From Candidatus Omnitrophota bacterium (GTDB lineage Bacteria > Omnitrophota > Gorgyraeia > Zapsychrales > Fredricksoniimonadaceae), in the NCBI GenBank assembly GCA_903944345.1, contig CAJARJ010000009.1:65875-129874 (forward strand): a stretch of DNA of 64,000 bases, in the 5' to 3' direction. The notes beneath the pieces were generated by a model. That model was not told the origin of the DNA, did no database searches, and worked only from the letters and a program-made list of their open reading frames with translations. The position numbers and the translations under genes are program-made. Positions 4,677-64,000 of this stretch are shown here, piece by piece (the first letter of the stretch is position 1; the number at the start of each line of letters is the position of its first letter).

Positions 4677-6497
4677 TTATGCCACAGGCGTAAGACGCAC
4701 CTTGACCTTGGGCCTATAATTTAAATTCGGTAAATCAACCGTGAGTTTCTCCGCATCAAAATTTTTCCAGGGATTACCGTCAATCCAGACCTCCGAGATA
4801 CGCACACTACCTTTAGGAAGAATATCCGGCTGAACCCGCAGAATATCCCCAGGGAAGCCATGCGGTAACGGTTTGAAATAAAGATCCAGCGGTTTCTTTG
4901 TATAAAGCAAATTCTGGTAGACCTGGGACAAATAGCATAGTTCGATCGAATGGTAACAGGCCATGGAATGACTGCCCTTCAGGCGTTCCGTTCCGAGCAG
5001 AAATGGCAACCCGTTATTAAGCACATTGAAATATACTGCGCCATCATCATGATCCAGGAAGAAGGCATTGTAGAAAGCTGCAGACTCGCGCCCCAGACGC
5101 AAATACTCGGGGTCCTTCAATACACCATGCATAATCTGATAGGCAAGAATGGCCTGCTCCTGCTGCCACCAGGCTTTACGATCGTGCCAGACATGACGAT
5201 AACAGGTTTCCCCCGGAGCCAGTTCTCTTTCCATAACGTCGTACCACCCGCCCCTCTGGACATCCATGCCGACTGTCGGCATAATGCTGGCAATCTTGCG
5301 GGCGAAATCCACATATTCCTTCTTGGATTTCAAACTGTTGATGCGTAACAAATTCCAGGCAATCTTGAGATTGTGTCCGATCACGCCCCGATTCTGCTGC
5401 CAGCCCCAGGTCTTGTCATGGCTCCAATCCTCCAGAAACTTTTCCTGAACGAACGGACTGTGCTCATAATCAGGGAAATATTTGGTAATGCAGTCGGCCG
5501 TCTCAATCAGGAAATCTTCGTGCTTCTTGTCGCCGGTGGCCAGCCAGAGATTGATCAAATAAGCTGGCGCATGATCTCCCAGCGAATTCCAGTTCTTGCG
5601 TCCGCGGTTTCTACCCAAAGATTCGTGTCTGGGATTAAGATTAACCGGATCGATATGGGAGAAATATCCGCCCTTTTCCTTGTCCAGAAAGAAACGATCA
5701 AAAAGATCAATGGTCATCTTGATATCTTTCATAATCGCCGGATCCCCGGTAATACGATAGGTCTGAGTGGGACCCGCCAGAGCATAAATCTGTTCATACA
5801 TCGGGATGCCATCATAATCATCACCGAATTCCGAGGCAAAGACCTTATGCTCCCGGCCATGCTTGATATCAATACCGTGGTACCAGTAGACCACATTCTC
5901 ATCCGTGTCATAGAAACGCATATGATCGCGCAGATACTGAGTCCCCTTCTCTGCCGCCTCCAGAAAACGATCTTCTCCGGTCAAAAGAAACGCCGAGGCC
6001 ATTCCATAGACCATCCGCGAAATGGTATCTGTCTCCTGACGATGATCCTCTTTACGCTCCCCGGTCAAAGATATCATCGTACGATAGTTGTTGTAATCGA
6101 TGGTATCCGGACTTCCGAACTCTGCCTTGATATAGAAATCCGCAATACTGGCGGCCTGCTTGATCCACCAATCAGCTTCTTCAAAACGGAAGTTATCGAT
6201 CCCGGCTCCAGAAAAAACAAGCACCTTGGCATCAAAATCAAACCCCTTGCTCTCGGGATAAAAAATACCCATTACATACAAGTACTGCCCTTCAACCATG
6301 AGCTCATCGATCCTGCCGGTATAATCGCACCATCCTTCACCTAAATTACGTGGTCCACGAGCATAAGCAGAAGCGGTCAGACGGGCGAAGAACTCTCTGC
6401 CATCAGTTGTTTTGAGGGAAAATGTACGTTTGTCCTTATCAAATCTGGTGACATAGCCGGCAATCGTATCTGAAAACTCGAACTTGATGTTATTCAT
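4677..6497 (-). CDS. AGE-family (N-acylglucosamine 2-epimerase / cellobiose 2-epimerase-like) six-hairpin protein with N-terminal extension
   Basis: 606 aa. The C-terminal block RKAWWQQEQAILAYQ matches the K.WW.Q.EA pattern of the AGE/YihS superfamily. An N-terminal beta-rich domain of about 200 aa precedes it. Confidence 0.5.
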   Translation of the reverse strand: MNNIKFEFSDTIAGYVTRFDKDKRTFSLKTTDGREFFARLTASAYARGPRNLGEGWCDYTGRIDELMVEGQYLYVMGIFYPESKGFDFDAKVLVFSGAGIDNFRFEEADWWIKQAASIADFYIKAEFGSPDTIDYNNYRTMISLTGERKEDHRQETDTISRMVYGMASAFLLTGEDRFLEAAEKGTQYLRDHMRFYDTDENVVYWYHGIDIKHGREHKVFASEFGDDYDGIPMYEQIYALAGPTQTYRITGDPAIMKDIKMTIDLFDRFFLDKEKGGYFSHIDPVNLNPRHESLGRNRGRKNWNSLGDHAPAYLINLWLATGDKKHEDFLIETADCITKYFPDYEHSPFVQEKFLEDWSHDKTWGWQQNRGVIGHNLKIAWNLLRINSLKSKKEYVDFARKIASIMPTVGMDVQRGGWYDVMERELAPGETCYRHVWHDRKAWWQQEQAILAYQIMHGVLKDPEYLRLGRESAAFYNAFFLDHDDGAVYFNVLNNGLPFLLGTERLKGSHSMACYHSIELCYLSQVYQNLLYTKKPLDLYFKPLPHGFPGDILRVQPDILPKGSVRISEVWIDGNPWKNFDAEKLTVDLPNLNYRPKVKVRLTPVA

Positions 6498-6790
6498 GAC
6501 AATCTCCCCTGAATGTAACGAATCAGACTAGTCTTCCTCTAACAAAAAAACGAGTCCGGTGCGGGCTCGTCTTTTATACGCATTTTGCTATAAATCCGGC
6601 CAACAAGACATACTGGAACTCCACGAGGAAAAATGGTAGATTACTTGTAAGTTCAAATTGGCAAAATAATACCTACTTAACAGAGGGCATTCTATCACCC
6701 GTTTTGATTTACACAACTATTTTTCAAAATGTATCTTTATGGCTGAAAACTATCTAACATTCCCGTCGCCTAAAATGAAAGAAACTCGCT

Positions 6791-49881: not shown

Positions 49882-52383
49882 ATGAAAAAAAACATAATCC
49901 CGCATTTGCTTCCCTGGCTGCTCACCGGATGCCTGGTCTTTATAGCAGGAATTTCTGTCCGCTTGTATCCACTAACCCATAATGTCACTTCTGATGCCTA
50001 TGAAGAAGGGACCCTTCTGGTCATCAACGGCATCCGCTCGATGCTGTCCGCACAGATCAGCGCCCAATTTCCACAAATGTCGTCAACTGAAAAAGAAGCA
50101 CTGGTTTCCAGCCGGCTCAACGAAACACTCCGCCAGGAGAACACCCGGGTTCGGAAAGCTTTCGAAGATGCCAGTCTGGAACTGCTCAAACAAAAGCCGG
50201 ACTCTGAGCACTACTTACTGGCTTCAGACGGATACTATTTTCTTAATCTGACCGAGAACATTCTGGCCAAAGGTGACGTAAGCGACCTAATCAAAGGAAG
50301 CCGTTACTTTAACACCCTTATGATGGCCCCGCTTGGCTACTGGGAGCCCCATTCATGGCATCCTTATGTCGGAGCATGGATCACCCGAGCTATCCGGCTC
50401 TTTGCCCCGGAAACTTCGACCATGTCCGCCGTTGCCTGGACTCCTATTGTTCTTCTGCCTTTTGCCATCGCCGCCTTTCTTTTTGCCTGCCGCGCCTCCG
50501 GCTGCTCCGTTGTCCCTTCTTTTACTGCTGCGGTCTTTTTTATTATGGCTTCTATTTACGTCAAGCGCAGCACCTACGCCTGGTACGACAATGACTCCTA
50601 TGCGGTTATCTTCCCGGCACTAGTTCTCGGCTGTCTCTTTATGGCATTACGCAGCCTCGGTCATACCAAAAAATTTATCCTCTACAGCGCTCTGGGGGCA
50701 GCATCCCTGGCCCTTTATTCGATGTTCTGGTCCGGATGGGTTTATCTCTGGGCCCTGACGCTGATAGCCATGACTGGAATAGGAATAAAATATCTTCTGT
50801 TGTCAGATCCCCGGATTAATCGGATAGCCCTGAGCGCAGCAACCCTGCTGGTTCTGACATTGCTCCTGGTCGCACTTTTGATCGGTCTGCCGCAAATCGG
50901 TGGAGTCATTCAAGCGGCATGGGGCGAATTGCAAAAATTTACAAATCCGGCTTTCAAAAGCTGGCCAGATCTTTTTGTTGTAGTCGGCGAACTAAAAAAA
51001 GGGTCCTGGAGCGATATTGCAGAACTCGGCGGAGGGCCTATTCCTCTTTTGGGTGCAGCGGTCAGTTTATTCTTCACACTTTATCTATTCCTGCGTAAAC
51101 GCATCCCTCCTTCGGATGAAATTATTATTCTGACTGCTTTTTCTTTGGTAACCTGCATGCTTGGCCTGTCTGCCCAGCGTTTTATTATCCTCTGCCTGGT
51201 TCCTGTATCTCTTCTTTTTGCTCTCGCCCTTGAGCAATCCTACGGCGCCAGAAAGAAACTTATCCGCCTTCTGCGAATCAATAAATCCTCTCTACGCTGG
51301 CTTGAAAAAGGCCTTCTTGCTTTGATGATTCTTTCTGTTTTTGTGCCGATTATCCATGGACAGCGTGCCATTCGCTCCCTGCTTAACCCCATTTTTAATT
51401 CAGCCTGGGACCGGGCGTTGACCAAACTCGCGCAAGAAACTCCTCCCGAAAGCATCATCAATACCTGGTGGACTCCCGGGCATTTCGTCAAAGCTATTGC
51501 CAAAAGATCTGTTACTTTTGATGGCGCCAGTATTAAAGGAGAACAGGCTTACTGGCTGACCAGAATCTATCTTGCCAATGATGAACGCGCTGCACTCGGT
51601 ATCCTGCGAATGCTTAACACCAGTTCAAACCAGGCAGCGGAATACCTGCAAAGCCTTGGTCTGCCTTTATCCATGGCCGTTCCTCTGCTTCTTGAAATCA
51701 CCAAGATGCCCGAAACAACGGCCAGACAAGCCCTGCGTAAAGTTTTCCCTGAAAACGCTACCAAAGAAATCCTGCGATTAACACATACCCCGCCCCCCCC
51801 CTCTTATATGCTGATTTATAACGAAATCGCGGAAAACAACCCGATGCTCGGGTACGTCGGCAAATGGGACTTCAGCCGTATCGAAAAACTTAACCAGACG
51901 CCTGCTGCGCTTAAGAAAATCCCTGCCCGGGGATCCTCTGGCTATACCGATTTTCTCTGGGGTCTTGTCGGAGGCCCTTTTCGTCAAAGCCCGATAATGA
52001 CTATGAATGGCCGCAATGGCACAAAAGAAATCTTTGCTGACACCCTGATCATCGATACTGACACAATGACCGCTGAGGTCCGTTCCAAAACTTATGGACA
52101 AGGCATCCCTTACAGTATTGTCTATCTTGATCCACACAAAAAAATTGTCACTGAGAAACCTCTCCCGGGAGCCAGTCTTACCTATTCCGTCGTTTATTTC
52201 ACCGATCGCCAGTCAAAAAAAGCCATCCTGATGGATCGGCTTCTGGCAAATTCACTCATTGTAAAAATGTATTATTTTGAAGGGAAAGGCCTTGAATATT
52301 TCGAGCCTTTTGCACAGGAACAGGATTTAACCGGACGCACCAGGATTTTCATTTACAAAATAAACTGGCCGAAGGATTTCTGA
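49882..52383 (+). CDS. STT3/AglB/PglB-family oligosaccharyltransferase-like membrane protein (GT-C) with a variant WWTPG motif
   Basis: 833 aa with about 13 N-terminal TM segments and a ~300-aa C-terminal soluble domain. The first-loop motif SDGYYF is comparable to the PglB NDGYAF motif. NTWWTPGH occupies the WWDYG position and is followed by TFDGAS, like PglB VDGGKH. Confidence 0.5.
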   Translation: MKKNIIPHLLPWLLTGCLVFIAGISVRLYPLTHNVTSDAYEEGTLLVINGIRSMLSAQISAQFPQMSSTEKEALVSSRLNETLRQENTRVRKAFEDASLELLKQKPDSEHYLLASDGYYFLNLTENILAKGDVSDLIKGSRYFNTLMMAPLGYWEPHSWHPYVGAWITRAIRLFAPETSTMSAVAWTPIVLLPFAIAAFLFACRASGCSVVPSFTAAVFFIMASIYVKRSTYAWYDNDSYAVIFPALVLGCLFMALRSLGHTKKFILYSALGAASLALYSMFWSGWVYLWALTLIAMTGIGIKYLLLSDPRINRIALSAATLLVLTLLLVALLIGLPQIGGVIQAAWGELQKFTNPAFKSWPDLFVVVGELKKGSWSDIAELGGGPIPLLGAAVSLFFTLYLFLRKRIPPSDEIIILTAFSLVTCMLGLSAQRFIILCLVPVSLLFALALEQSYGARKKLIRLLRINKSSLRWLEKGLLALMILSVFVPIIHGQRAIRSLLNPIFNSAWDRALTKLAQETPPESIINTWWTPGHFVKAIAKRSVTFDGASIKGEQAYWLTRIYLANDERAALGILRMLNTSSNQAAEYLQSLGLPLSMAVPLLLEITKMPETTARQALRKVFPENATKEILRLTHTPPPPSYMLIYNEIAENNPMLGYVGKWDFSRIEKLNQTPAALKKIPARGSSGYTDFLWGLVGGPFRQSPIMTMNGRNGTKEIFADTLIIDTDTMTAEVRSKTYGQGIPYSIVYLDPHKKIVTEKPLPGASLTYSVVYFTDRQSKKAILMDRLLANSLIVKMYYFEGKGLEYFEPFAQEQDLTGRTRIFIYKINWPKDF

Positions 52384-52482: not shown

Positions 52483-52559
52483 GGGTCGGTAGCTCAGTTT
52501 GGGAGAGCGCCTCGTTCGCAATGAGGAGGTCGTGGGTTCGACTCCCATCCGATCCACCA
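52483..52559 (+). tRNA. tRNA-Ala (anticodon CGC)
   Basis: GGGTCGGTAGCTCAGTTTGGGAGAGCGCCTCG-TTCGCAA-TGAGGAGGTCGTGGGTTCGACTCCCATCCGATCCACCA. It has the G3:U70 Ala identity pair and an encoded CCA. Confidence 0.85.
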
Positions 52560-52626: not shown

Positions 52627-54291
52627 TCACGGAAATTCATATAAATATAAACCGACACCTTTGTCTTCTTTCTGAACTACCTTTTTGGCAGAAAGATCAA
52701 ATGAACGCTTAACTATATCAATCAACGCCTGCTCCAATGGATCATGTGTTGCCACATAGAGCCAAACGCGCCCCCAACGCTCTTTACTAATCACCGGCAC
52801 ATCCTGACAGGCGAAAAGTAACTGATCTCCTCCGCTTAACAGGCGTCGGAAATGTCCTCCGGCGTCATAAACGTTATACTCATAACGCATCGGAACACAT
52901 TCCCTGCCATTACTTTTGATCGAATCCAAAGCAAATTTTACCACGCGAACACCTCGCTGCAATTCCCCCTCAAACAACCCCAACGGTTGCGCTAAGAAAC
53001 GACCGTAGCCGTAAATAGGAGCGTAATGCCAAAAAGGCTCTTGTCCGGCAGTATTAAACACCAGCAAGTCCCCTTGCCGATAATTTTCATGAAACAGCCT
53101 CAAAGCCTCTCGTGTCTCAATTTTTGCGTGTGAATGGAAAAGATAGAACCCCGCTTCCAGAAAAGAAGGAACCACCAGAACCGCAACCAAGCCCACGGTC
53201 AATACAATCCTTCTCGCAGCAGAGAATTTGCTGATTAAAGCACCGACCGCCTCTGCAATCAGAAGGATGACTCCCGGCATAAGAAACAGGATCAGCCTGC
53301 CACGGAAAGGATACTTTTCCAGCGCTGCCGCAAGCAGCGCAGCCAGAACCGGAAACAAAAACATCCAGAATCGCGCACGATCGCGCTTCCATAACAGAAC
53401 CGCCCCGCTCAAACAAAGAAATCCCGCCAAAGGTGTCACATAAATCCCGGCAGCACCTCTGAACATTTCAAGAAAAGCCTTCAACGCCCACCATATCAAA
53501 GCCGGAAGATTGGTCCAACTACCTGTATAGACCGAACCGGAAAAAGTTGACAAAATAGCGGTACTCCCTACCATTGAGGCCAGACTAAGTCTATAGATAA
53601 CAAGCAAAACCAATAGCCAAACCGCCGCAATCAGAAACAAAAGCGGCGCTGCCGCATATCTTTTACGCGCCCACATATCATCCAGCAAAATGACTCCGAA
53701 CGCTGCCAGAACAAAAAGCAGGGCATTGGACATCCAGAGCCCTGCCACACCGAAGGCAAGCAGCCATAAAAGAGCTCTGGTTTTGTACTCACAGCGACGA
53801 ATCCATTCAAAAACCCACAAAGCCAGAACCGCCATTAAAAGATCACTGGAATACTGTTTCACCTCACCTGCGTAATAGACCATCGGTTCAGCAAAAGCAA
53901 ACAGCGCCAGAGCCCAAGGCAAAACATCTCGTGAGGCGTAACGACAAAGGTAACGATAAAAAAGTATTAAAGCAAGAATCGCCGAAAAAAACGGAAAAAA
54001 GCGCAAAACCATATCTGTCGGGCCAAAAAGAGAGACCAATATCCGTTCAATCACAAGAAAAAATAGCGGCTGTTTGGGAAATTCGGGGAAGATTTCGAAA
54101 TAAGAAAAAATTTCTCCCAATGACCGGCTTGTGATACTGACCGTCAAACAAGCCTCATCCAGCCATACCGAACGGTTCTCCAGATAATGCTTTAGACGAA
54201 ATATAATTCCCAGCGACAAAATTATCCATGACAAGCGGCCCGCAAGAACATTATAAAAAGCTCTTGTTTTATCCCGAAAGAATGACATCAT
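52627..54291 (-). CDS. GT-C fold glycosyltransferase (GT39/GT83, ArnT/PMT-like)
   Basis: 554 aa and polytopic. The first periplasmic loop carries the DE motif (RSVWLDEACL). A C-terminal soluble domain is present. Confidence 0.6.
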   Translation of the reverse strand: MMSFFRDKTRAFYNVLAGRLSWIILSLGIIFRLKHYLENRSVWLDEACLTVSITSRSLGEIFSYFEIFPEFPKQPLFFLVIERILVSLFGPTDMVLRFFPFFSAILALILFYRYLCRYASRDVLPWALALFAFAEPMVYYAGEVKQYSSDLLMAVLALWVFEWIRRCEYKTRALLWLLAFGVAGLWMSNALLFVLAAFGVILLDDMWARKRYAAAPLLFLIAAVWLLVLLVIYRLSLASMVGSTAILSTFSGSVYTGSWTNLPALIWWALKAFLEMFRGAAGIYVTPLAGFLCLSGAVLLWKRDRARFWMFLFPVLAALLAAALEKYPFRGRLILFLMPGVILLIAEAVGALISKFSAARRIVLTVGLVAVLVVPSFLEAGFYLFHSHAKIETREALRLFHENYRQGDLLVFNTAGQEPFWHYAPIYGYGRFLAQPLGLFEGELQRGVRVVKFALDSIKSNGRECVPMRYEYNVYDAGGHFRRLLSGGDQLLFACQDVPVISKERWGRVWLYVATHDPLEQALIDIVKRSFDLSAKKVVQKEDKGVGLYLYEFP

Positions 54292-54306: not shown

Positions 54307-55128
54307 TTATAAAGCACCCCGTAACCGCACCTGGATGCCCTCTGATTTGCTGTCGGCATCGACCCGGCTCTGTCCAAAAGCATTGATCTGATCAGCAAAA
54401 AAAGAACGTTCTTGTTCGGTCCCGGTCACTAAAGGCCGACCTTTCTCTGAGACAATCTTAACCCGTTGCTTTAAAAGGTCTTCAAGCCTCACGGCCAGGT
54501 CTTCTCTCTTTCTAGAGCGAAGCGCAGTGATGGCATCCATAACCTTGAATCGCTGATTGAGGATCATATAACACAGTCCGGCTCCGTAATGAAGCATGGC
54601 ATTATCGTCGCGATTCAGATTCTTCTCAAAAAACGGCAAAGCTTCATCCGCATTGGACTGTCCTAAAAGATAAACCCAGGCCAAAGAAACCTCAATGTCC
54701 GGCTGGGAGGTCTTCAGAGCAAGTGAACGGCTTAACGCTTGAGCGGCTTGAGAAAAATCACCAGAAGAATAACAGGCCCGACCCAGATTATTCAAAGCAT
54801 CCACACTTTGAGGATCAATATCAGCAGCCAGTCTGAAATATCGGATAGATTCCCGAGTATCCGCCATTGGCCCGGATTCAAAAACAACGCCAAGGCCGTT
54901 ATAGGCTGCGGAAAACCTGGGGTCGAGTTCTATCGCTTTCTTGAAAAATTCAATAGCCTGCTCATAGGCGCCATCACGAGTAGCCATTACTCCCATTTGA
55001 TAAAAATTTTCTTTAGTCAACGACGCGGCTGCGCACAAAGAAGAAAATGAAGAATGGACGACCAGAATTGCCAGGAATATAAAAGTAGACAAACAAAACT
55101 TTTTACTAGACACAGGATTACTGAACAT
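54307..55128 (-). CDS. Secreted TPR-repeat protein
   Basis: Signal peptide; I trimmed the start to MFSNPVSSKKFCLSTFIFLAIL. At least four TPR units (AYNGLGVV, ALNNLGRACY and others). Confidence 0.65.
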   Translation of the reverse strand: MFSNPVSSKKFCLSTFIFLAILVVHSSFSSLCAAASLTKENFYQMGVMATRDGAYEQAIEFFKKAIELDPRFSAAYNGLGVVFESGPMADTRESIRYFRLAADIDPQSVDALNNLGRACYSSGDFSQAAQALSRSLALKTSQPDIEVSLAWVYLLGQSNADEALPFFEKNLNRDDNAMLHYGAGLCYMILNQRFKVMDAITALRSRKREDLAVRLEDLLKQRVKIVSEKGRPLVTGTEQERSFFADQINAFGQSRVDADSKSEGIQVRLRGAL

Positions 55129-55792
55129 TCGAAGCTTTAGACTGATCAGACGAAAGACTGTCCTTGATTCTGACCAATGTCTTGGCACTTACAGAAGGAT
55201 CTGCCCCGATCACAAGCCTTGAGATGGTCAATGTAGCCTGAACAACATCCTCGGCTTTTCCAGAGGAAACAGTCATCTTTTCAACCTTAAAAAGATTTTT
55301 CGATGATTGTAAAGCATAAATAAAACTGGTCAAATCTGTCAAGGACGCTGAACAATCCAGCGAAACCAGATACTTTAAAAAATCATCCGTATACTCCTGA
55401 CCTGCCGGGGTCAGCTTGGACATCTGCACATTGGCTTTAGTGGCCATTAATTCGACTTGCTTCAAAAAATCGGCTATGACCTCTTCTTCAGCCTTGACCT
55501 CTTGAGTGAAATAATCTCCAAAAACAGAAGCATCCTTCATAATTCGTTCGCGATAGGCCAAAAAGTGCTGATTCTGCCGAACCACATTTTGCTCTTTTTC
55601 AATGGCTTCATTAAGCTGCCGCAACCGTCCCGTAGCAGGCGAAATCAAGAGCCGATCAAAAAGTGCCGCTGTCACCGCCAATGCGGCCAATAAAAAAACT
55701 TTTTTCTCCGTTGCTGAAAGACCGGAAATAAACTTGTGAATCAAGGGTTGCTCCTTATTTATCCTGGGCGATAGAAGAATCCTGGCGCTCAA
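55118..55792 (-). CDS. gspM: GspM/PilO-like T2SS inner-membrane component
   Basis: N-terminal TM, coiled coil and periplasmic domain. Placed by position downstream of gspL. Confidence 0.5.
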   Translation of the reverse strand: MSARILLSPRINKEQPLIHKFISGLSATEKKVFLLAALAVTAALFDRLLISPATGRLRQLNEAIEKEQNVVRQNQHFLAYRERIMKDASVFGDYFTQEVKAEEEVIADFLKQVELMATKANVQMSKLTPAGQEYTDDFLKYLVSLDCSASLTDLTSFIYALQSSKNLFKVEKMTVSSGKAEDVVQATLTISRLVIGADPSVSAKTLVRIKDSLSSDQSKASNVQ

Positions 55793-57224
55793 CCGGTTGC
55801 CCGAAAGAAGATATCCCGAGAACTATCTCGAAAACAGCGACATCTTTGCTGCGTTCTTTCCTGGTTGCCGTAGACTTGGTCTTGACACTCTCAAAAAGAT
55901 CTGACTCTTCCAGACTGGTTACAAAAGAAAACACCTGGGACATTGAATCAGAAACTCCCTGCAAACTCATTGTTCCGGAAAGGTCCATACTGACATTCGA
56001 AAGATACATCTCATCTGGAACCAGTCGATAAAGCTCCCGTATGACCTCCAAAGGAATTTCACGGGCAAACATATGTTGACGCAAAATGCGCGTCTTGGCT
56101 GCCATATTTTCAAGGTTGCGGACTTCCAGCTTTTGCTCAGCGAATTTCTCGATCAAATTCTGTTTCAAAAACATGTCTCTAAAATAGACCCGGCTGGACA
56201 TTCCTCCACTGATAAAAAAAAGAAAAAGAATAACCAAAACTCCAGCTTTGAAAGTTTCCTGTCCGCGCTGGAAAACAGCTCTCTGATCTTTTATTTCCTG
56301 CGGAACAAGATCGACCTGACATTTTGAGGCATATATCGCAGGCGCGATAACGTCCAAAGCTGTGTCATCAGTAAAATCCTTGACCAAAGCATCTTTGACC
56401 TGAGCATCTGCCTGGAGCAAATTGATATAAGAAAGTCGCTCTACTTTAACGCCATATGCGGCAGTGATTGCATCAGCAATCTGGGCCAAAGAAGACTGAT
56501 TCGAAGTTAGTACAAAGCGTCCCGGCTTAAGCGGTGTCCCCTGCTGTTCATAAGCATCCAGGGAAAGTTTTAACTCGTTCATGAATTGCCCGACAGCCTC
56601 GACATCCACCGTCAGATGCTCCAGTCCAATAGGAATCGAGCGGGCAGAAAGCAACGAAGACTGATTCTCCAGCATAAAAGTCGCGCTGGTTTTTGCAAAA
56701 TCTATAATCACAACCGGAGAATCATTCTTTTTGTGCTTGAAAATAGCCGCATAAAAATGCGCAATACCTTCCGGAACAAACTGAACCGAAGTTGTCTCCA
56801 GTTTGGCACGCCGCATCAAAGCAATTTTGTCTTTAACCACATCCCGCTTGACCACAACCAGAAGCACCCGGGTGGAATTAGGCTTTGGATGCCCCAACTG
56901 AATATACCCTGTCAGAATCTCATCTTTACTAAAAGGAGTTTGCCGGGCGGCCTGCAAAGCAAGAATCGAATCCAATTCATCTTTGTCGACAGAAGGAACC
57001 TCAATACTCTTGAGAGTCACAACGTCTGCGGGAATCAGGCAGATAACACCAGCGCCTTTGGTGTTGAACCCGGACAATACGCCAAGAAGCGCTGCGTCTG
57101 CTCCGGCATTATTGATAGGACGTTTGACCAGTTTTTCAATATATCCAGAACTCCTGATCTGGGCGATCTTGAGTGTGTCGGAAGAAATTGAAATACTGAT
57201 ATATCTGGAGTATCTTAAAGACAT
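55755..57224 (-). CDS. gspL: GspL-like (PilM-like cytoplasmic actin-fold + TM + periplasmic domain)
   Basis: 489 aa, matching the domain organisation of GspL. It directly follows gspK. Confidence 0.6.
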   Translation of the reverse strand: MSLRYSRYISISISSDTLKIAQIRSSGYIEKLVKRPINNAGADAALLGVLSGFNTKGAGVICLIPADVVTLKSIEVPSVDKDELDSILALQAARQTPFSKDEILTGYIQLGHPKPNSTRVLLVVVKRDVVKDKIALMRRAKLETTSVQFVPEGIAHFYAAIFKHKKNDSPVVIIDFAKTSATFMLENQSSLLSARSIPIGLEHLTVDVEAVGQFMNELKLSLDAYEQQGTPLKPGRFVLTSNQSSLAQIADAITAAYGVKVERLSYINLLQADAQVKDALVKDFTDDTALDVIAPAIYASKCQVDLVPQEIKDQRAVFQRGQETFKAGVLVILFLFFISGGMSSRVYFRDMFLKQNLIEKFAEQKLEVRNLENMAAKTRILRQHMFAREIPLEVIRELYRLVPDEMYLSNVSMDLSGTMSLQGVSDSMSQVFSFVTSLEESDLFESVKTKSTATRKERSKDVAVFEIVLGISSFGQPVERQDSSIAQDK

Positions 57225-57288: not shown

Positions 57289-58305
57289 TTATTTTTGCAC
57301 CCAAAGTTCAACCTTCCCGGTTAAAACATCGAGCACTCCAAAAATCTCCGCATTCTCAGCGTCAGGTGTCCGGCTGCGGAAAGAATATACTGTCGACTCA
57401 ACGCCGATTATCCCCCTGGAATTAAGTGCGTCTATCTGCCGGGCGGAGTCTTCCTCAAGGCCAACGAGCTTGCCCACATCCGCAGCCACATCGAACGAAC
57501 GCAGAAAAATATGGTCATCAGCAGTTGCTTCAAGACCGTCTTTGCCCCGTCTTGCCTGCAAAATCCTGTCTGTCACCATGGCCTCCAGTCCCAAAGCCAA
57601 CAGCACTGTGCGGGAAGCTGTATTAATATTAACCCTGCCATTGCCATAAATTGTAAGATATGCAGCCAGCTTTCTGAACTTCTCTGCATTCATGCCTTTA
57701 ACCAGCAACAACTCATCCAGTCGCTCGAAAGGAGATTCCTTCATCGGATAAGGGGAATCCAGATTCTGGTAATAGCTATCACTAAAAAATCCCTGCGCCG
57801 AACGCATCCCGTAATCGCGCCAGTCGAGAATATCATCCGCGAGCGTCTGCGCCTCATCCGTCATCAGACCCAAAACAAGTGAAAGAAGCCTGGACAGAAC
57901 CGTCCGGTCGGACGTGTTTAAGTTGATCTTGGCCTGCTCATCGGCAAGACCAAAAAGAAAGCCGCTTCCCGCCACCGGATCCAGCTGATAGTCAACCTGA
58001 ACTTTTAAACCGGCAACCATAATTTCAGAAAAATCAGACGAATTATTATGCCTGCGTAATTTCGCGGATAATGACGGAAAAACTCCTGAAGTTTCCACAT
58101 CGTCTGTCAGCACCGCAATAGCTTTTTTTGCTCCGGCCTGCACTGCGGCGCGAACCTGAGAACGTGACTCAAGCCTTTTGAGCATGACAATTCTTTGCCG
58201 GGCGCCCAACCCGATCGAAACGGCCAGAATTGTCAGAAAAGATAACGACCACAAGGACAATAACAATACAGCAGCATCTTTACGAAACAAGAAAACTTTC
58301 CCCAA
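57289..58305 (-). CDS. gspK: GspK minor pseudopilin
   Basis: GspK hallmark GRVNINTAS and a hydrophobic N-terminal segment (AAVLLLSLWSLSFLTILAV). The track ORF (to 58566) overlaps gspJ by 260 nt, so I trimmed to TTG at 58305, 1 nt after the gspJ stop. Confidence 0.6.
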   Translation of the reverse strand: MGKVFLFRKDAAVLLLSLWSLSFLTILAVSIGLGARQRIVMLKRLESRSQVRAAVQAGAKKAIAVLTDDVETSGVFPSLSAKLRRHNNSSDFSEIMVAGLKVQVDYQLDPVAGSGFLFGLADEQAKINLNTSDRTVLSRLLSLVLGLMTDEAQTLADDILDWRDYGMRSAQGFFSDSYYQNLDSPYPMKESPFERLDELLLVKGMNAEKFRKLAAYLTIYGNGRVNINTASRTVLLALGLEAMVTDRILQARRGKDGLEATADDHIFLRSFDVAADVGKLVGLEEDSARQIDALNSRGIIGVESTVYSFRSRTPDAENAEIFGVLDVLTGKVELWVQK

Positions 58306-58306
58306 C

Positions 58307-58891
58307 TTACACCCCCGCCGGCAAAACAAAATATCTTGCAATTTTTCTGTTTTGCTTTTGTTCCACCCATTCGACCTCAACCATAATGCCAGCCGGAAGA
58401 ATCTGCCCTTCCTTAAATGGCAGAGCCTCGGATGAACCCGGATAATAATACAAGAAACGCAGACTACTGACGCCAGGTGCAACCTGGACAGGTGTCTGCC
58501 AATTGCCATGAACCGCCCGACCATAATCAGCCTGCTGCCGCACAATCTGGCCAGAAACTTCATCATAAAAGTACCTGACCACCCCTATCTGCTCACCGGC
58601 CACTTCATCGACCCGGGAACTTTTTGCATCAGTCTTTGCGTAAATAATAGTTGGAAAAGTAAGTGCAGAGATTTCGCCTTCAACCGAAAGCGTAGAAAAA
58701 AGAAAAGCGTTGGCTGTCTCGACTGCCAACCGGTCAAAAAAGACCGTCACGGCTTCCGCCGTCCTCACAGCCTGCATCTTCTTCCATAATTTTAACCCAT
58801 TTGACAAACAAAGAAAAACAGCAAGACTGATGGAAGCTACCAGCGCCGTAACCAGCAACATTTCCAGAAGAGAAAAGCCCTGTCTTTTCAC
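58307..58891 (-). CDS. gspJ: GspJ-like minor pseudopilin
   Basis: Prepilin-type N-terminus MKRQGFSLLEMLLVTAL. Confidence 0.6.
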   Translation of the reverse strand: MKRQGFSLLEMLLVTALVASISLAVFLCLSNGLKLWKKMQAVRTAEAVTVFFDRLAVETANAFLFSTLSVEGEISALTFPTIIYAKTDAKSSRVDEVAGEQIGVVRYFYDEVSGQIVRQQADYGRAVHGNWQTPVQVAPGVSSLRFLYYYPGSSEALPFKEGQILPAGIMVEVEWVEQKQNRKIARYFVLPAGV

Positions 58892-59313
58892 TGAGCTCCC
58901 GTGTTATTGAATGAAGAAAGTCCAGAAAAGTATGCACTCCGGGAAAGAGTAAACATTCTTTCCCTCTCCTGCCAGGATACGCTCAGATCAAGTTGAAAAA
59001 CTGACAACAATGTCCCCACAGGTTTGAGGACTGCAGACAGCTGAAAACTGACGGGTCGGACACCATATCCTTCCTCGCCCCCTGACGAAGAAACATCCGC
59101 GGCATGCAAAGAGCGCAGCTCCTTTTCGATAAAGGCGGATCTGGACTCCAAAAGATTCAGCGCATAAAGACGATTTGCCAAATGCTCATTCAAATCCGCA
59201 CCGAGCAAAAACGAACGATAGATGGCTACCAGACCGGCGGAAAGAATAATGATCGCGACCATAACCTCGATAAAAGTCAGGCCGGAACAATTACTTCCAG
59301 TTCGTAATATCAT
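58888..59313 (-). CDS. GspI/GspH-like minor pseudopilin
   Basis: Prepilin motif SG/LTFIEVMVAIIIL with E at +5. I trimmed the start to MILRTGSNCSG to limit overlap with gspG. Confidence 0.5.
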   Translation of the reverse strand: MILRTGSNCSGLTFIEVMVAIIILSAGLVAIYRSFLLGADLNEHLANRLYALNLLESRSAFIEKELRSLHAADVSSSGGEEGYGVRPVSFQLSAVLKPVGTLLSVFQLDLSVSWQERERMFTLSRSAYFSGLSSFNNTGAQ

Positions 59314-59710
59314 CCGCCTCGGCATCAGCATCCTTTCCCTTGGAGAAAAGATCATAGTCAGTTCTGTGCGCCCCGGGAGCCTGATAAACATAGGCATTGT
59401 TCCAGGGATCAAGCGGATCTTTTTCTAAATAGGGACCCTGCCAGTTTCTGGGAACAGGGGCCAGCGATGATTTCTCCCGCAATGCTCTAAGTCCCTGGGA
59501 AGTTGTCGGGAAAGATCCATTGTCAAGTTCATAAAGCTTGAGCGCCGTGGCAATATTAGTCTGGATATCGGCTTTAGCCACAGCAATCAGGGCTTGCTCC
59601 GACCGACCGGACAGACGCGGCATGATCATGGCCGCCAAAGCCCCGATTATAACTACAACCAGCATAATCTCCACCAAAGTAAAACCCTGGTCATTATTCT
59701 TCATACCCAA
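59291..59710 (-). CDS. gspG: GspG major pseudopilin
   Basis: MGMKNNDQGFTLVEIMLVVVIIGALAAMIMP ... NWQGPYL...DPWNNAY; a classic GspG. Confidence 0.85.
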   Translation of the reverse strand: MGMKNNDQGFTLVEIMLVVVIIGALAAMIMPRLSGRSEQALIAVAKADIQTNIATALKLYELDNGSFPTTSQGLRALREKSSLAPVPRNWQGPYLEKDPLDPWNNAYVYQAPGAHRTDYDLFSKGKDADAEADDITNWK

Positions 59711-59717
59711 CCTCCGG

Positions 59718-60575
59718 TTAAATGTTGTCCAATGACAAAAACGCTTTCCATCTTTTCTCCAGATCGTTCACCGATGGAAAGACCAAAGGATACGCAGTCT
59801 GGAGCGCCTGCTCAAAATCCTTGCCATCGCGCAATTCTCGCAGCAAGCGGCGAAAAGCGTCCCGTCCGTGCTTCTCCAGCATAAAAAGAACCAATGAAAG
59901 ACTCTGCGCATAAAATAATGATACTTTTGCGGTGTCCTTCTCATTAACAATATCCATTCCCGCAAGGATCGCTAACGGAATAATCTGCCCTGACGCTTCA
60001 ACCTGCTTTATTGCCTGCTGAACAATTTCTCGCTTATCGCTTTCCGCTAACTGGGCAATTCCCTCCTCAAGCCATAAAGGAACTTTGCTTGAAAACCCGA
60101 GAAAATCCCAAAGAACCAGATGGGCGATTTCATGCGGCAATGCTTCTTCCAGAAAACCGAGCTGCCCCAGCCAGGAAACGATCACCCGGCTTGAAAAAAA
60201 TTTTGAATACCGACTGGCATACGCTTTGGACCACTGCGGTTGTCCGGTAAAACGATTATAGCTGAACTGGTCTGGATATAAAACAATCCTAACCCTGCGA
60301 TCCCATGCCCAGGACTGCTGATGTCGGCTGTGACCAATATCAGAGGTAATCTTGCTGTAATACAATTCCGCCCGATCCAGAATTTGCCGGGCACTAGCCC
60401 GCTCCTGCTCGGCAGTAAACTCAACAAGAAAGTGCTCGCCCCTGACCTCCTGAAACGGCTGATTATCCCCGGCGCACGCTATCGAAAATAGCTGCGATAA
60501 AAAAAAGCACGACAGTAAAATAAAAACATGGAATCCTGACAAAATTCGGGGCAATAACGAAACTGTTCCGGTCAT
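59718..60575 (-). CDS. Secreted zinc metallopeptidase-like protein (HExxH...E gluzincin motif) embedded in the T2SS operon
   Basis: Signal peptide. HEIAHLV is followed 20 aa later by LEEGIAQ. The gene overlaps the gspF stop by 4 nt. Confidence 0.55.
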   Translation of the reverse strand: MTGTVSLLPRILSGFHVFILLSCFFLSQLFSIACAGDNQPFQEVRGEHFLVEFTAEQERASARQILDRAELYYSKITSDIGHSRHQQSWAWDRRVRIVLYPDQFSYNRFTGQPQWSKAYASRYSKFFSSRVIVSWLGQLGFLEEALPHEIAHLVLWDFLGFSSKVPLWLEEGIAQLAESDKREIVQQAIKQVEASGQIIPLAILAGMDIVNEKDTAKVSLFYAQSLSLVLFMLEKHGRDAFRRLLRELRDGKDFEQALQTAYPLVFPSVNDLEKRWKAFLSLDNI

Positions 60576-61777
60576 TGAAAGGCGTCCATCTGAAAGATTG
60601 GCATTAACATGGCGAAAACCAGAAACCCCACCACCAGTCCAACGCCAAGAATTAAAACCGGCTCCAGCAAAGTCATAAGAACTTTTGTCGATTCGGAAAT
60701 TTCTTCTTCATAGGTATCCGCGATGTCTTCCAAAGCCCGTGCCAGCTCACCGGACTCTTCCCCGACTGCAATCAACTGAACAAAGGAGTCCGGAATATTC
60801 TCGGCAGCAGACAACGCTTGCGCAAATCCGGCGCCTCCCGCAATTTGTTGCTGACAAAGCGTCAAAGCATCGGCCAGACGTTCATTAACAACTGTTGGCC
60901 CTGCAATCTCCAAAGAACGTAAAACAGGTATTCCACTGCGCAAAAGCAGACTGGTCGTCCGGGAAAAACGTTCGAGATCAATCTTGAGAAAAAAAGTCGC
61001 AAAAAAAGGGATCCCTGACATCATCCGGAAACAAACACCTCGCAAAGAGACCACGAACGCCGGTGAACGCAACAGCACAAGAAAAAGCAAAATTGCCGGA
61101 ATGGCAAAAGGCCACAACTTGCAGGCCAAATCACTTAAACGCATCACAATCAAAGTCGGCAGTGGCAAATTGCTGCCCAAATCACGAAAAAGCACCAGAA
61201 TCCGGGGAAGAACAAAAGTGAGAATAAAAACAACTGTCACAAAACCAAGTGCCAGCATAAAAGCCGGATAAACCAAAGCAGTTCTAACCTTGGAGGCTAT
61301 CTCCTCCTGTTTTCGGTAATAAACCACAACATTGGCCAGCATTTCTTTTAACTGTCCGCTTTCCTCTCCGGCTCTGGCCATGGCAATATACAAACGGGGA
61401 AAGAAATCCGCATGTTCTGCCAGGCATGCAGAAAAAGACCGGCCATTACGGATATTCGACGCAATATCTTTCAACACCCCAACAAGTCGTATATCTTTGG
61501 TCCGCCGCAAAATCATTTCAAGCGCCTTCAACAAAGGAACTCCCGATTTCAGCAGACTAACCAGTTGTTTGGAGAACGACAGCAGACTACGGCTACCAGA
61601 AGCTGACACTTGCAGAGGAACATGAACGCTAATCCCCCCATTTTTCTCTTCAACAACAACCGGCAACAAACTCATACGGCTAACCAGATCAATAGCCTCG
61701 CGCTGATCCGTCGCCAGAATTTCTCCCAAAACGGTTTCCCCGCTATCTTTCTTTGCTTTATAGGAAAAAAGCGGCAT
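60572..61777 (-). CDS. gspF: GspF inner-membrane platform protein
   Basis: 401 aa with two GspF repeats and three TM segments. Confidence 0.85.
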   Translation of the reverse strand: MPLFSYKAKKDSGETVLGEILATDQREAIDLVSRMSLLPVVVEEKNGGISVHVPLQVSASGSRSLLSFSKQLVSLLKSGVPLLKALEMILRRTKDIRLVGVLKDIASNIRNGRSFSACLAEHADFFPRLYIAMARAGEESGQLKEMLANVVVYYRKQEEIASKVRTALVYPAFMLALGFVTVVFILTFVLPRILVLFRDLGSNLPLPTLIVMRLSDLACKLWPFAIPAILLFLVLLRSPAFVVSLRGVCFRMMSGIPFFATFFLKIDLERFSRTTSLLLRSGIPVLRSLEIAGPTVVNERLADALTLCQQQIAGGAGFAQALSAAENIPDSFVQLIAVGEESGELARALEDIADTYEEEISESTKVLMTLLEPVLILGVGLVVGFLVFAMLMPIFQMDAFQ

Positions 61778-61780
61778 TGC

Positions 61781-64000
<2,220 letters not shown>

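Follow-up and report, generated by a model that had tools for sequence, protein, structure and literature searches.

We find that the main pilus/secretion operon of the Omnitrophota, an uncultivated phylum, contains an intact gluzincin gene that is as fixed and as conserved across the phylum as the gene of the platform protein. Few bacterial nanomachines are as well studied as the type IV filament machines (T2SS, T4P, and relatives), and to our knowledge the canonical parts lists of these machines include no soluble metalloprotease. Our preferred, tentative reading is that of a periplasmic protease dedicated to the machine, for processing or turnover; a dedicated cargo of the same machine is the close rival. 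The gene lies in a window of 64 kb, the whole stretch of Omnitrophota DNA that was analyzed, where the operon and the parts of the peptidase map as follows:

63516–63998, minus strand: 3′ part of the last gene of an upstream F-type ATPase cluster (PF00006, PF22919)
61781–63538, minus strand: gspE/pilB-type assembly ATPase with an MshEN N-terminal domain (PF00437, 434.7 bits; PF05157, 69.4 bits)
60572–61777, minus strand: gspF/pilC-type platform gene (PF00482, 198.7 bits)
59718–60575, minus strand: Peptidase_MA_2 gluzincin gene, a 285-aa ORF with a PF13485 match
60471–60575, minus strand: Sec type-I signal peptide, residues 1–35, with cleavage predicted by rule between ACA and GD
60120–60134, minus strand: HEIAH zinc-binding/catalytic motif (residues 148–152, with H148, E149, and H152), assigned by conservation
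60051–60074, minus strand: WLEEGIAQ helix (residues 168–175) with the third zinc ligand E171 (HExxH-x18-E, ExxA)
59901–59915, minus strand: FYAQS with Tyr222, a candidate transition-state-stabilizing Tyr as in M1, assigned by conservation
59291–59710, minus strand: gspG major pseudopilin (TIGR01710, 144.3 bits against a cutoff of 88.85; PF08334)
58888–59412, minus strand: GspI-like minor pseudopilin (N_methyl motif at residues 40–65, weak TIGR01707 match)
58307–58891, minus strand: GspH/J-like minor pseudopilin (prepilin N-methylation motif)
57289–58566, minus strand: gspK-like minor pseudopilin (PF21687, 54.6 bits against a cutoff of 26.2)
55755–57224, minus strand: PilM-PilN fusion, functional analogue of GspL (PF11104 and PF05137 on one protein)
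55118–55792, minus strand: GspM/PilO-like protein (NF040576, 34.7 bits, and PF04612, 21 bits, both below cutoffs)
54307–55188, minus strand: periplasmic TPR protein, last in the conserved operon (many TPR Pfam matches, weak PilW/Tgl matches)

The peptidase gene is real and coding far beyond chance, because it matches PF13485 (Peptidase_MA_2) over residues 141–280 with 58.7 bits (gathering cutoff 32.4, E 8.8e-16) and has at least 175 homologs. Its ATG overlaps the gspF stop by 4 nt as ATGA, and its TAA stop is followed by CCGGAGG and then by TTG, the first possible gspG start. Both this overlap and the tight packing between gspF and gspG had been described in the original prediction, as had a 7-nt gap to gspG; the gap is correct for the TTG, but the likelier start is an ATG at 59704, two codons past the TTG and 13 nt from the peptidase stop, because a GGAGG between the two genes lies 6 nt upstream of it and GspG is 137 aa long in the 88%-identical locus L084. 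It can be inferred that the peptidase gene, whose next neighbor downstream is the major pseudopilin gene, shares a transcript with the platform gene, and it is probably translationally coupled to gspF. The 4-nt overlap supports this much and not the “stoichiometric co-expression” first proposed. A promoter and terminator scan of the operon returned 20 promoter-like sites where 11.8 ± 3.5 are expected and gave nothing informative on an internal promoter.

The N-terminus of the protein is, by rule-based prediction, a cleavable type-I signal peptide, consistent with the export signal noted originally. Residues 1–35 have a hydrophobic core and an A-C-A site, and among 229 full-length orthologs a hydrophobic region is found in 224 and a small-x-small site directly ahead of the mature domain in 199. 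We rejected a lipoprotein reading of the string SIAC, since the Cys is absent from the 88%-identical ortholog and lipobox-like strings occur in only 17 of the 229. The predicted mature protein (residues 36–285) has ~250 aa, a mass of 29.0 kDa, a pI of 6.1, and no Cys.

The sequence signature of gluzincins, HExxH with a downstream Glu in EGIA (ExxA), is conserved family-wide. Among relatives H148 and E149 are each kept in 269 of 270, H152 in 270/270, E171 in 269/270, and G172 in 268/270; Tyr222, which may have a catalytic helper role by analogy with M1 enzymes, is kept in all 260 relatives that cover the position. Altogether, 258 of 260 full-length relatives have HExxH, the Glu 18 residues downstream, and the Tyr intact, and judged by this conservation the peptidase is apparently catalytically active. 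Near-invariance extends to several positions outside the catalytic set, on the N-terminal sheet and near the motif helices (H48, W89, R94, W115, P166, and W168), which suggests one conserved substrate. The AF2 model is confident (pLDDT 89.2, pTM 0.82) and consists of a single domain with an N-terminal sheet and a helical C-subdomain, and the top 28 Foldseek matches are all M9 or M1 gluzincins (E 7e-6 to 1e-3, probability 1.0, query-normalized TM 0.45–0.59). The predicted structure thus has the thermolysin-like two-subdomain gluzincin fold of clan MA. The gluzincin assignment, made at first from HExxH and the EEGIAQ Glu, is therefore borne out both by the family and by the structure prediction and fold search that had been proposed as a check.

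The best structural matches, the M9 collagenases (VhaC, ColG/H/T) and M1 aminopeptidases (IRAP, ERAP1, APN), share just 10–15% sequence identity with the peptidase. It has the M1-type HExxH-x18-E (18 residues from H152 to E171), the WxxEG helix, and the downstream Tyr, but not the accessory M1 domains, and at the place of the M1 exopeptidase motif GxMEN it has a segment TGQPxWS with a variable residue at the Glu position. Peptidase_M1 (PF01433) gave no match in the window protein and only 19–21 bits in four homologs (cutoff 27.7). Relative to the M9 collagenases it is a single domain without the collagenase activator domain, and Peptidase_M9 (PF01752) scores 17.3 bits, below the cutoff of 26. 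Flagellinolysin (NF033876), a protease embedded in flagellin, scores 28.1 bits against a cutoff of 205. A PDB search with the single sequence gave no matches, and one with the family profile gave sub-threshold M1 matches only, in which the WLEEG region aligns with WLNEG of the M1 aminopeptidase 3CIA.

The closest likeness is to the PF13485 family (NCBI “peptidase MA family metallohydrolase”), whose members are likewise small, single-domain, exported proteins with HExxH, Glu, and Tyr; among the matches listed, 120/120 homologs carry PF13485. Within the wider Peptidase_MA_2 superfamily (14,407 clusters at E ≤ 1e-3), the proteins encoded in the Omnitrophota operon make up a distinct orthogroup (~286 clusters at E ≤ 1e-30). 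We found no biochemical or genetic characterization of any member in the literature on PF13485/Peptidase_MA_2. Long family members either have plain N-terminal extensions or are rare fusions or read-throughs to Lnt or a TlpA-like redoxin, both of which are envelope-facing enzymes; none is a Rosetta-stone fusion to a T2SS component. We also considered Gcp16, a protein with a gluzincin motif whose occurrence follows that of the mitochondrial T2SS and which has bacterial members in the PVC superphylum, to which Omnitrophota also belong; its link to the T2SS is by phylogenetic profile only (PMC8134430). Like the peptidase it is a putative HExxH/ExxA gluzincin tied to a T2SS-type machine, but its peptidase region is followed by two TM helices, its HExxH-to-Glu spacing is ~12, and it has no signal peptide, and the AF2 model of the peptidase has no C-terminal TM helix. 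Homology between the two was rejected, as hhalign of the 7 published Gcp16 sequences against the peptidase family profile gave a probability of 8.2% over 44 motif columns only.

The peptidase occurs in the genomes of at least 502 species, practically all of them Omnitrophota, and in nearly every Omnitrophota genome examined its gene lies between the platform and pilin genes. The gspF gene adjoins it upstream in 69 of 80 loci (median gap 9 nt) and gspG adjoins it downstream in 73 of 79 (median gap 23 nt); in genome L037 it lies away from the operon. A complete absence from orthologous T2SS operons would have spoken against the original prediction, and orthologous operons almost always contain the gene. 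Median identity to the window protein is 39% for the peptidase and 41% for GspF, followed by GspK (38%), PilMN and GspI (34% each), and GspJ and GspM (31% each). Values of dN/dS are 0.05–0.13 for the peptidase, 0.06–0.12 for GspF, and 0.12–0.27 for the minor pseudopilins, pointing to purifying selection on the peptidase at the level of GspF with no sign of diversifying selection.

The divergence of the peptidase correlates with that of its neighbors (r 0.76–0.80), and together with the uniform GC of the gene and its neighbors (0.47–0.49 across the operon) this led us to reject a recent horizontal insertion. The gene was originally said to be “inserted”; on comparative evidence it is instead an old, ancestral, and fixed part of the operon, vertically co-inherited across the phylum and without a compositional anomaly. 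In an exploratory mirror-tree analysis the residual distance covariation of the peptidase was highest with GspF (partial r 0.39–0.46) and PilMN (0.34–0.36), values that equal the strongest within-machine pairs, and ~0 with GspG, GspJ, GspK, and GspE; such covariation is prone to false positives, and similar rates and physical linkage to gspF could yield the GspF signal.

The flanking machine has the GspG and GspK pseudopilins of a canonical T2SS and the PilM/PilN/PilO-type platform of a T4aP, and by sequence it is classed as a T2SS/T4aP hybrid. The gspE-type ATPase scores 586.6 bits with TIGR02533 (cutoff 630), the gspF-type protein 299 bits with TIGR02120 (equivalog cutoff 424), and the gspK-like protein 70.5 bits with NF037980, also below cutoff; a weak PilO match occurs in L002. 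The GspI-like and gspK-like ORFs as listed are probably over-extended, the former at its N-terminus and the latter relative to orthologs of ~338 aa. No GspD secretin, GspC, or GspO was found among the operon genes, 20 other window ORFs scanned, or the L001–L003 flanks, and no PilT retraction ATPase, PilQ, PilP, or PilD was found within the 64-kb window or the sampled flanks. The secretin scan took in every window ORF of ≥500 aa, and the remaining ORFs of ≥150 aa are all <380 aa, too short for a typical secretin. GspD, GspC, and GspO could be encoded elsewhere in the genome. The T2SS originally proposed is thus partly retained: the pseudopilins GspG and GspK are of the secretion type, but the platform is of the PilM/N/O type and the window holds no secretin, GspC, or prepilin peptidase.

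Upstream, the F-type ATPase cluster ends in a gene that runs 23 nt into gspE, and the full 7-gene cluster is present at L084, L001, and L002. The locus itself has been described before, under the name “symbiotic F-type ATPase/T4aP” locus, by Seymour et al. 2023 (PMC10066038), who call the machine a T4aP; the arrangement, with a type-2/3-like F-ATPase cluster directly upstream of pilB/gspE, is the same as ours and was reported in every Omnitrophota class. The main text of PMC10066038 does not mention “peptidase”, “protease”, or “metallopeptidase”, and the embedded gluzincin seems to have drawn no comment so far. West-Roberts 2023 and a 2026 complete-genome preprint describe a different gspD/rcpC-type locus beside giant genes, not the peptidase operon, and a 2025 follow-up on V. 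archaeovorus has nothing on pili or on the operon peptidase. Omnitrophota are thought to be epibionts or predators, and the F-type ATPase cluster joined to their operon is unusual.

We tentatively prefer a dedicated role of the peptidase in the machine over its being a client for export. The protein would be a Sec-exported, soluble, single-domain zinc endopeptidase of ~29 kDa with H148, H152, and E171 as putative Zn ligands, E149 as general base, and Tyr222 as helper, and would form an ancestral dedicated module of the F-ATPase-linked type IV filament machine of Omnitrophota. Its site of action may be periplasmic, on or close to the assembly platform, and its conserved substrate would be a component or client of the machine. 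For example, it could clear or trim pseudopilins where the operon has no retraction ATPase, or alternatively mature a machine-dependent protein. In favor of this role we count the intact catalytic set, the confident gluzincin-like model, the conserved AxA signal peptide, the fixation in the operon, the GspF-like identity and dN/dS, the near-invariant non-catalytic residues, the covariation with GspF and PilMN, and the rare fusions to the envelope-facing Lnt and TlpA-like redoxin. Against it, we are aware of no T2SS or T4P in which a soluble metalloprotease serves as a working accessory, and other type IV filament machines work without one. Additionally, the known operon-encoded signal-peptide proteins (SslE, TcpF, and CofJ) are cargo, and the pseudopilin set G, I, J, and K is of the secretion type, which fits cargo.

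It is possible, then, that the peptidase is itself a dedicated cargo. Once folded in the periplasm, it would be driven out by the GspG/I/J/K pseudopilus, leaving through a secretin whose gene lies elsewhere, and would act outside the cell, for instance on host or prey surface proteins of epibiotic or predatory nanobacteria. A Sec signal peptide on a soluble single-domain hydrolase, T2SS-type pseudopilins (GspG above its equivalog cutoff and a GspK domain), and the host-dependent lifestyle proposed for the phylum (PMC10066038) agree with this. Precedents for cargo encoded with its machine are TcpF of the V. cholerae TCP (PMC9565799, PMC10120004), CofJ of ETEC CFA/III, which behaves likewise (PMC6048534), and SslE/YghJ, a zinc metalloprotease with a dedicated E. 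coli T2SS-beta (PMC3707838, PMC4014459, PMC5012682). The peptidase is, like these three, predicted to be Sec-exported, soluble, and encoded with the machine, and like SslE it would be a zinc metalloprotease, but SslE is M60-like and a large lipoprotein. However, TcpF, CofJ, and SslE are lineage-specific, restricted to species or genera, whereas the peptidase is fixed at an internal position phylum-wide and evolves like a core subunit, as slowly as GspF and under strong purifying selection. Its likely substrate-facing residues are invariant although hosts presumably differ, it shows no covariation with the tip pseudopilins that would recognize cargo, and no secretin was found within the 64-kb window or the sampled flanks.

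We consider it unlikely that the peptidase goes beyond a dedicated accessory role to be an obligatory enzymatic subunit, docked at the GspF/PilMN platform and cleaving pseudopilins or another component in the working cycle. Proteolytic disassembly or length control of the pseudopilus could then, for example, replace a retraction ATPase. Such a subunit would give a T2SS or T4P, for the first time, a step that depends on proteolysis other than the removal of prepilin leaders.

A role in cell-wall or envelope remodelling, in which the peptidase locally cleaves envelope proteins or the stem peptides of peptidoglycan to let the machine through the wall, as dedicated lytic enzymes of other trans-envelope machines do, is improbable. 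Export of the peptidase, its expression together with the machine, and its core-gene conservation would suit such a role, and dedicated wall-remodelling enzymes are common in trans-envelope systems; but known peptidoglycan peptidases are M23, M15, M14, and NlpC/P60 enzymes rather than M1/M9-like gluzincins, and a Pfam search of the peptidase detected no peptidoglycan-binding domain (LysM, SPOR, PG_binding). Very improbable, too, is a general periplasmic housekeeping protease that rides in a highly expressed operon and is functionally unrelated to the machine. The huge size of the Peptidase_MA_2 superfamily and the off-operon gene of L037 would suit such a protein, but an adjacency of 86–92% would not outlast phylum-scale divergence without a functional link, and the operon members form an orthogroup of their own. 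Least credible is a non-catalytic structural subunit (a pseudo-protease), the “unrecognised structural component” once suggested, since catalytic residues this close to absolute conservation indicate an enzyme, or an alternative prepilin peptidase for the missing GspO/PilD, since prepilin leaders are cut at the cytoplasmic face and the domain is exported to the periplasmic side. That no GspC, PilP, or GspO gene was found in the operon would fit either, as would the speculation that Gcp16 takes the place of the prepilin peptidase in the mitochondrial T2SS (PMC8134430), but the two proteins are not homologous (hhalign probability 8%).

A mature enzyme of 250 aa without cysteines should express easily, which makes the peptidase a concrete testable target. 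If it is cargo, it identifies the one protein that the machine was built to export and gives a direct handle on host attack or attachment by Omnitrophota nanobacteria. If it is an accessory of the machine, it would add a proteolytic step to pilus and pseudopilus biology and bear on how pseudopili that have no retraction ATPase disassemble.

The HExxH peptidase gene belongs to an operon for a T2SS/T4aP-like type IV filament system (hereafter the machine), read from the minus strand in the order last gene of an F-type ATPase cluster, gspE, gspF, peptidase, gspG, two minor pseudopilins, gspK, a PilM-PilN fusion, a GspM/PilO-like gene, a TPR gene and a PMT_2-like gene. The features of this region are as follows.

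63516-63998, minus strand: last gene of the F-type ATPase cluster, overlapping the gspE start by 23 nt
61781-63538, minus strand: gspE assembly ATPase with an N-terminal MshEN domain
Directly upstream of the peptidase gene, minus strand: gspF/PilC-type platform gene (PF00482, 198.7 bits)
59718-60575, minus strand: peptidase, ORF of 285 aa
Directly downstream of the peptidase gene, minus strand: gspG pseudopilin (TIGR01710, 144.3 bits vs cutoff 88.85)
58888-59412, minus strand: GspI-like gene, mechanical ORF over-extended at the 5′ end, prepilin motif from residue ~40
57289-58566, minus strand: GspK-like gene, mechanical ORF over-extended at the 5′ end (425 aa vs ~338 aa in orthologs)
52627-54291, minus strand: polytopic protein of 554 aa, 15 nt past the TPR gene, weak PMT_2 (GT-C glycosyltransferase) match, E 0.004
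52483-52559, plus strand: tRNA-Ala, anticodon CGC, between the STT3-like gene and the operon end
49882-52383, plus strand: STT3-like oligosaccharyltransferase gene, convergent with the operon

The 86-aa and 63-aa ORFs at 52483-52559 overlap the tRNA-Ala and were rejected as spurious. Since the GspI- and GspK-like ORFs are over-extended, their large apparent overlaps with preceding genes are start-codon artefacts. The original prediction had placed an HExxH gene between gspF and gspG, and this descriptive part is correct, with PF00482 upstream and TIGR01710 downstream; the expected overlap of the peptidase ATG with the gspF TGA is seen as ATGA. After the peptidase TAA come CCGGAGG and TTG-GGT-ATG, in this order. 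The predicted distance of 7 nt to gspG holds for the first possible start, TTG; the ATG at 59704 is more plausible, given a GGAGG 6 nt upstream and the 137-aa GspG called in L084, an 88%-identical locus. GC content is flat over the peptidase region.

The peptidase matches Pfam Peptidase_MA_2 (PF13485) over the gathering score (E 8.8e-16). Among 39 aligned orthologs (36-88% identity), the residues that never vary include H148, E149 and H152 of HEIAH (residues 148-152), E171 of WLEEGIAQ (residues 168-175) and Y222, as well as H48, F49, W89, W91, R94, W115, S116, P166 and W168. All five H-E-H-E-Y positions are covered by 260 of 270 relatives and intact in 258 of these, the two exceptions being single substitutions. 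The spacing HExxH-x18-E with a WxxEG helix is the signature of M1 aminopeptidases, and a weak profile alignment with one of them, 3CIA, matches exactly these elements. An AlphaFold2 model from the alignment is confident (pLDDT 89.2, pTM 0.82), with the signal peptide as an N-terminal helix, one subdomain built on a five-stranded sheet and another that is helical. Its top 28 Foldseek matches in the PDB are all catalytic domains of M9 collagenase peptidases or M1 aminopeptidases (E from 7e-6, probability 1.0, identity 10-15%). The original prediction had read HEIAH and the EEGIAQ glutamate as a gluzincin active site and proposed structure prediction and a fold search; motif conservation and predicted fold support that reading, and the search returned M9/M1 gluzincin-type domains. 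By motif and predicted fold, the peptidase belongs to Peptidase_MA_2 and the gluzincins.

Closer assignments were rejected: for M1 there is no GxMEN motif and no significant PF01433 match, for M9 the score is 17.3 bits vs a cutoff of 26 and the activator domain is missing, and for flagellinolysin it is 28 bits vs 205. Since GxMEN is an exopeptidase motif, its absence from the sequence points to an endopeptidase. The N-terminus has the sequence of a classical type-I signal peptide. A hydrophobic core is present there in 224 of 229 full-length orthologs, a small-x-small site lies a few residues ahead of the first strand in 199, and lipobox-like strings are rare. The computed mature protein has 250 aa, 29.0 kDa, a pI of 6.1 and zero cysteines. 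This is an exported, soluble, minimal gluzincin that looks in every respect like an active enzyme. One subclade (P0099, P0110, P0115, P0120) carries an insertion of ~23 residues (consensus about YIRxTxTKxGExGVxFLS) at columns 264-286 of the family alignment A1, directly before the helix of the invariant Tyr.

A search of 5.8 billion proteins gave at least 175 matches; PF13485 is present in all 120 of those listed, and almost every named one comes from a Candidatus Omnitrophota MAG. When one genome per species was scanned, at least 502 genomes proved to encode a relative. Among the best 80 of these, most are labelled Omnitrophota, many have a generic MAG label ('uncultured Planctomycetales/Planctomycetia') and a few have others; because nearly all share the same operon, we treated the latter two groups as Omnitrophota-type. 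An HMM run exhaustively against 1.84 billion representatives resolved a discrete orthogroup of 286 clusters at E<=1e-30 and a wider superfamily of 14,407 clusters at E<=1e-3. Orthologous operons clearly contain the gene; their never doing so was among the grounds for refutation that the original prediction had named. Counting neighbours <400 nt away as adjacent, gspF is adjacent upstream in 69 of 80 informative loci (displaced in 7, absent in 4; median gap 9 nt) and gspG downstream in 73 of 79 (displaced in 4, absent in 2; median gap 23 nt). Between the ATPase cluster and the TPR gene, both included, gene order is the same in three loci of 38-50% identity, one of them on a 3.36-Mb contig. The earlier description of the gene as "inserted" is misleading, because the gene is ancestral to the operon.

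Several loci (own coordinates) depart from this order. Response-regulator/histidine-kinase genes lie between gspF and the peptidase gene in L025 (4613-5014), L049 (2887-5990), L072 (2914-6000) and L081 (3124-5986) and likewise upstream of it in L039, L054 and L082, and in L031 (6696-8660) the peptidase gene and gspG are separated by a histidine-kinase gene. Their placement suggests a regulated internal promoter that may drive the peptidase and pseudopilin genes. In L032, a 377-aa tandem paralog with a long acidic N-terminal extension (4854-5987, plus strand) stands between gspF and the true peptidase (5974-6777); HMIAH replaces its HExxH, and with the catalytic Glu lost it is probably an inactive pseudo-protease. 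L037 is the only sampled genome with an ortholog outside the pilus operon (5833-6723), adjoining mutL, a REP-associated-transposase-like gene and a 1971-aa ORF. Two close family members are joined to other envelope enzymes: P0251 (793 aa) runs from apolipoprotein N-acyltransferase (Lnt) through a signal-peptide-like segment to the peptidase, and P0189 (409 aa) from the peptidase to a TlpA/AhpC-like redoxin. Either may be a genuine fusion or an artefact of gene calling.

The machine is a hybrid of T2SS-type pseudopilins and a T4P-type platform. The operon genes and 20 other window ORFs, among them every ORF of at least 500 aa, yielded no secretin, GspC/PilP, prepilin peptidase or PilT; the unscanned ORFs of at least 150 aa are all <380 aa, a length that a typical secretin exceeds. 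The ATPase cluster has seven genes (beta, epsilon, c, a small ORF, b/delta-OSCP, gamma and an alpha-like gene with a V/A-type C-domain; L084 356-5742, L001 1-4487), and, given the 23-nt overlap with gspE, its genes and those of the pilus seem to form a single transcription unit. Distant gspE orthologs (about 740 aa; L001 4521-6737, L003 4527-6749) have an additional C-terminal PilZ domain; together with MshEN, this suggests c-di-GMP control. STT3 homologs lie just downstream of the operon in at least eight other loci (L003, L035, L048, L060, L061, L071, L075, L078), and with the PMT_2-like gene they raise the possibility that pilins or exported proteins may be glycosylated. The GspM/PilO-like protein has 224 aa in the window, 307 aa in L003 and 744 aa in L001 (13007-15241, on the 3.36-Mb contig), where the extra ~560 residues have no Pfam match and might hide a missing periplasmic or outer-membrane component.

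The window operon and its upstream ATPase gene have the arrangement that Seymour et al. 2023 (PMC10066038) describe for every Omnitrophota class, where a type-2/3-like F-ATPase cluster, termed "symbiotic", sits together with a "type-4a pilus" cluster. The text of that paper mentions no peptidase or protease. Elsewhere, according to Horvathova et al. 2021 (PMC8134430), an HExxH/ExxA protein with homologs in PVC bacteria, Gcp16, occurs together with the mitochondrial T2SS. Its kinship with the peptidase was rejected with a profile of seven published Gcp16 sequences (hhalign probability 8%, over the motif only; architectures differ). The two are unrelated, parallel examples of a T2SS-type machine with a gluzincin tied to it.

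Median identities to the window copy across 55 loci are 66% for GspG, 60% for GspE, 41% for GspF, 39% for the peptidase, 38% for GspK, 34% for PilMN and GspI, 33% for TPR, and 31% for GspM and GspJ. Peptidase divergence correlates with that of GspE, GspF and PilMN (r 0.76-0.80). In ten close locus pairs, some near dS saturation, dN/dS (NG86) is 0.05-0.13 for the peptidase, 0.06-0.12 for GspF and 0.12-0.27 for minor pseudopilins, indicating purifying selection like that on core components; nothing in these pairs hints at diversifying selection, which a host-directed effector would be expected to show. In an exploratory mirror-tree analysis of 44 non-redundant operons with shared phylogenetic signal removed, residual covariation of the peptidase is highest with GspF (0.39-0.46, bootstrap 95% 0.20-0.56), followed by PilMN (0.34-0.36), as high as for the GspF-PilMN and PilMN-GspM pairs, and about zero with GspG, GspJ, GspK, GspM and GspE. 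We take this as weak evidence, since signals of this kind can arise from similar rates of substitution and from physical linkage.

The analysis shows an export signal, a predicted gluzincin fold, intact catalytic residues, fixation in the operon and purifying selection as on core components; the peptidase's place of action and substrate we infer, and two readings are close. We tentatively prefer a periplasmic protease dedicated to the machine. The gene is fixed phylum-wide at an internal operon position and evolves at a rate like that of GspF, the invariant residues around the predicted cleft suggest one conserved substrate, and the weak covariation with platform proteins and the rare joins to the envelope enzymes Lnt and TlpA-like redoxin, if real, point the same way. 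Plausible substrates would be the pseudopilins, for turnover or length control in an operon with no retraction ATPase, or another client of the machine. Somewhat less probable, if still a serious contender, is that the peptidase is the machine's dedicated cargo. It is a signal-peptide hydrolase beside a secretion-type pseudopilin set, and there are strong precedents: the TCP operon encodes TcpF, which the minor pilin recognises (PMC9565799, PMC10120004), CofJ behaves like TcpF (PMC6048534), and SslE is a zinc metalloprotease with a dedicated T2SS (PMC3707838, PMC4014459, PMC5012682). However, known cargoes are lineage-specific, no secretin was found nearby, and the tip pseudopilins do not covary with the peptidase. 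A wall remodelling enzyme is improbable and a hitchhiking housekeeping protease slightly more so; a pseudo-enzyme, given the conserved catalytic residues, or an alternative prepilin peptidase, given the periplasmic topology, is the least credible. The locus integrates a gluzincin into a type IV filament operon. The peptidase, no oddity of this one genome, is a conserved part of a published Omnitrophota locus and had apparently gone unremarked. If the accessory-protease reading is true, it would make the finding more than notable to specialists.
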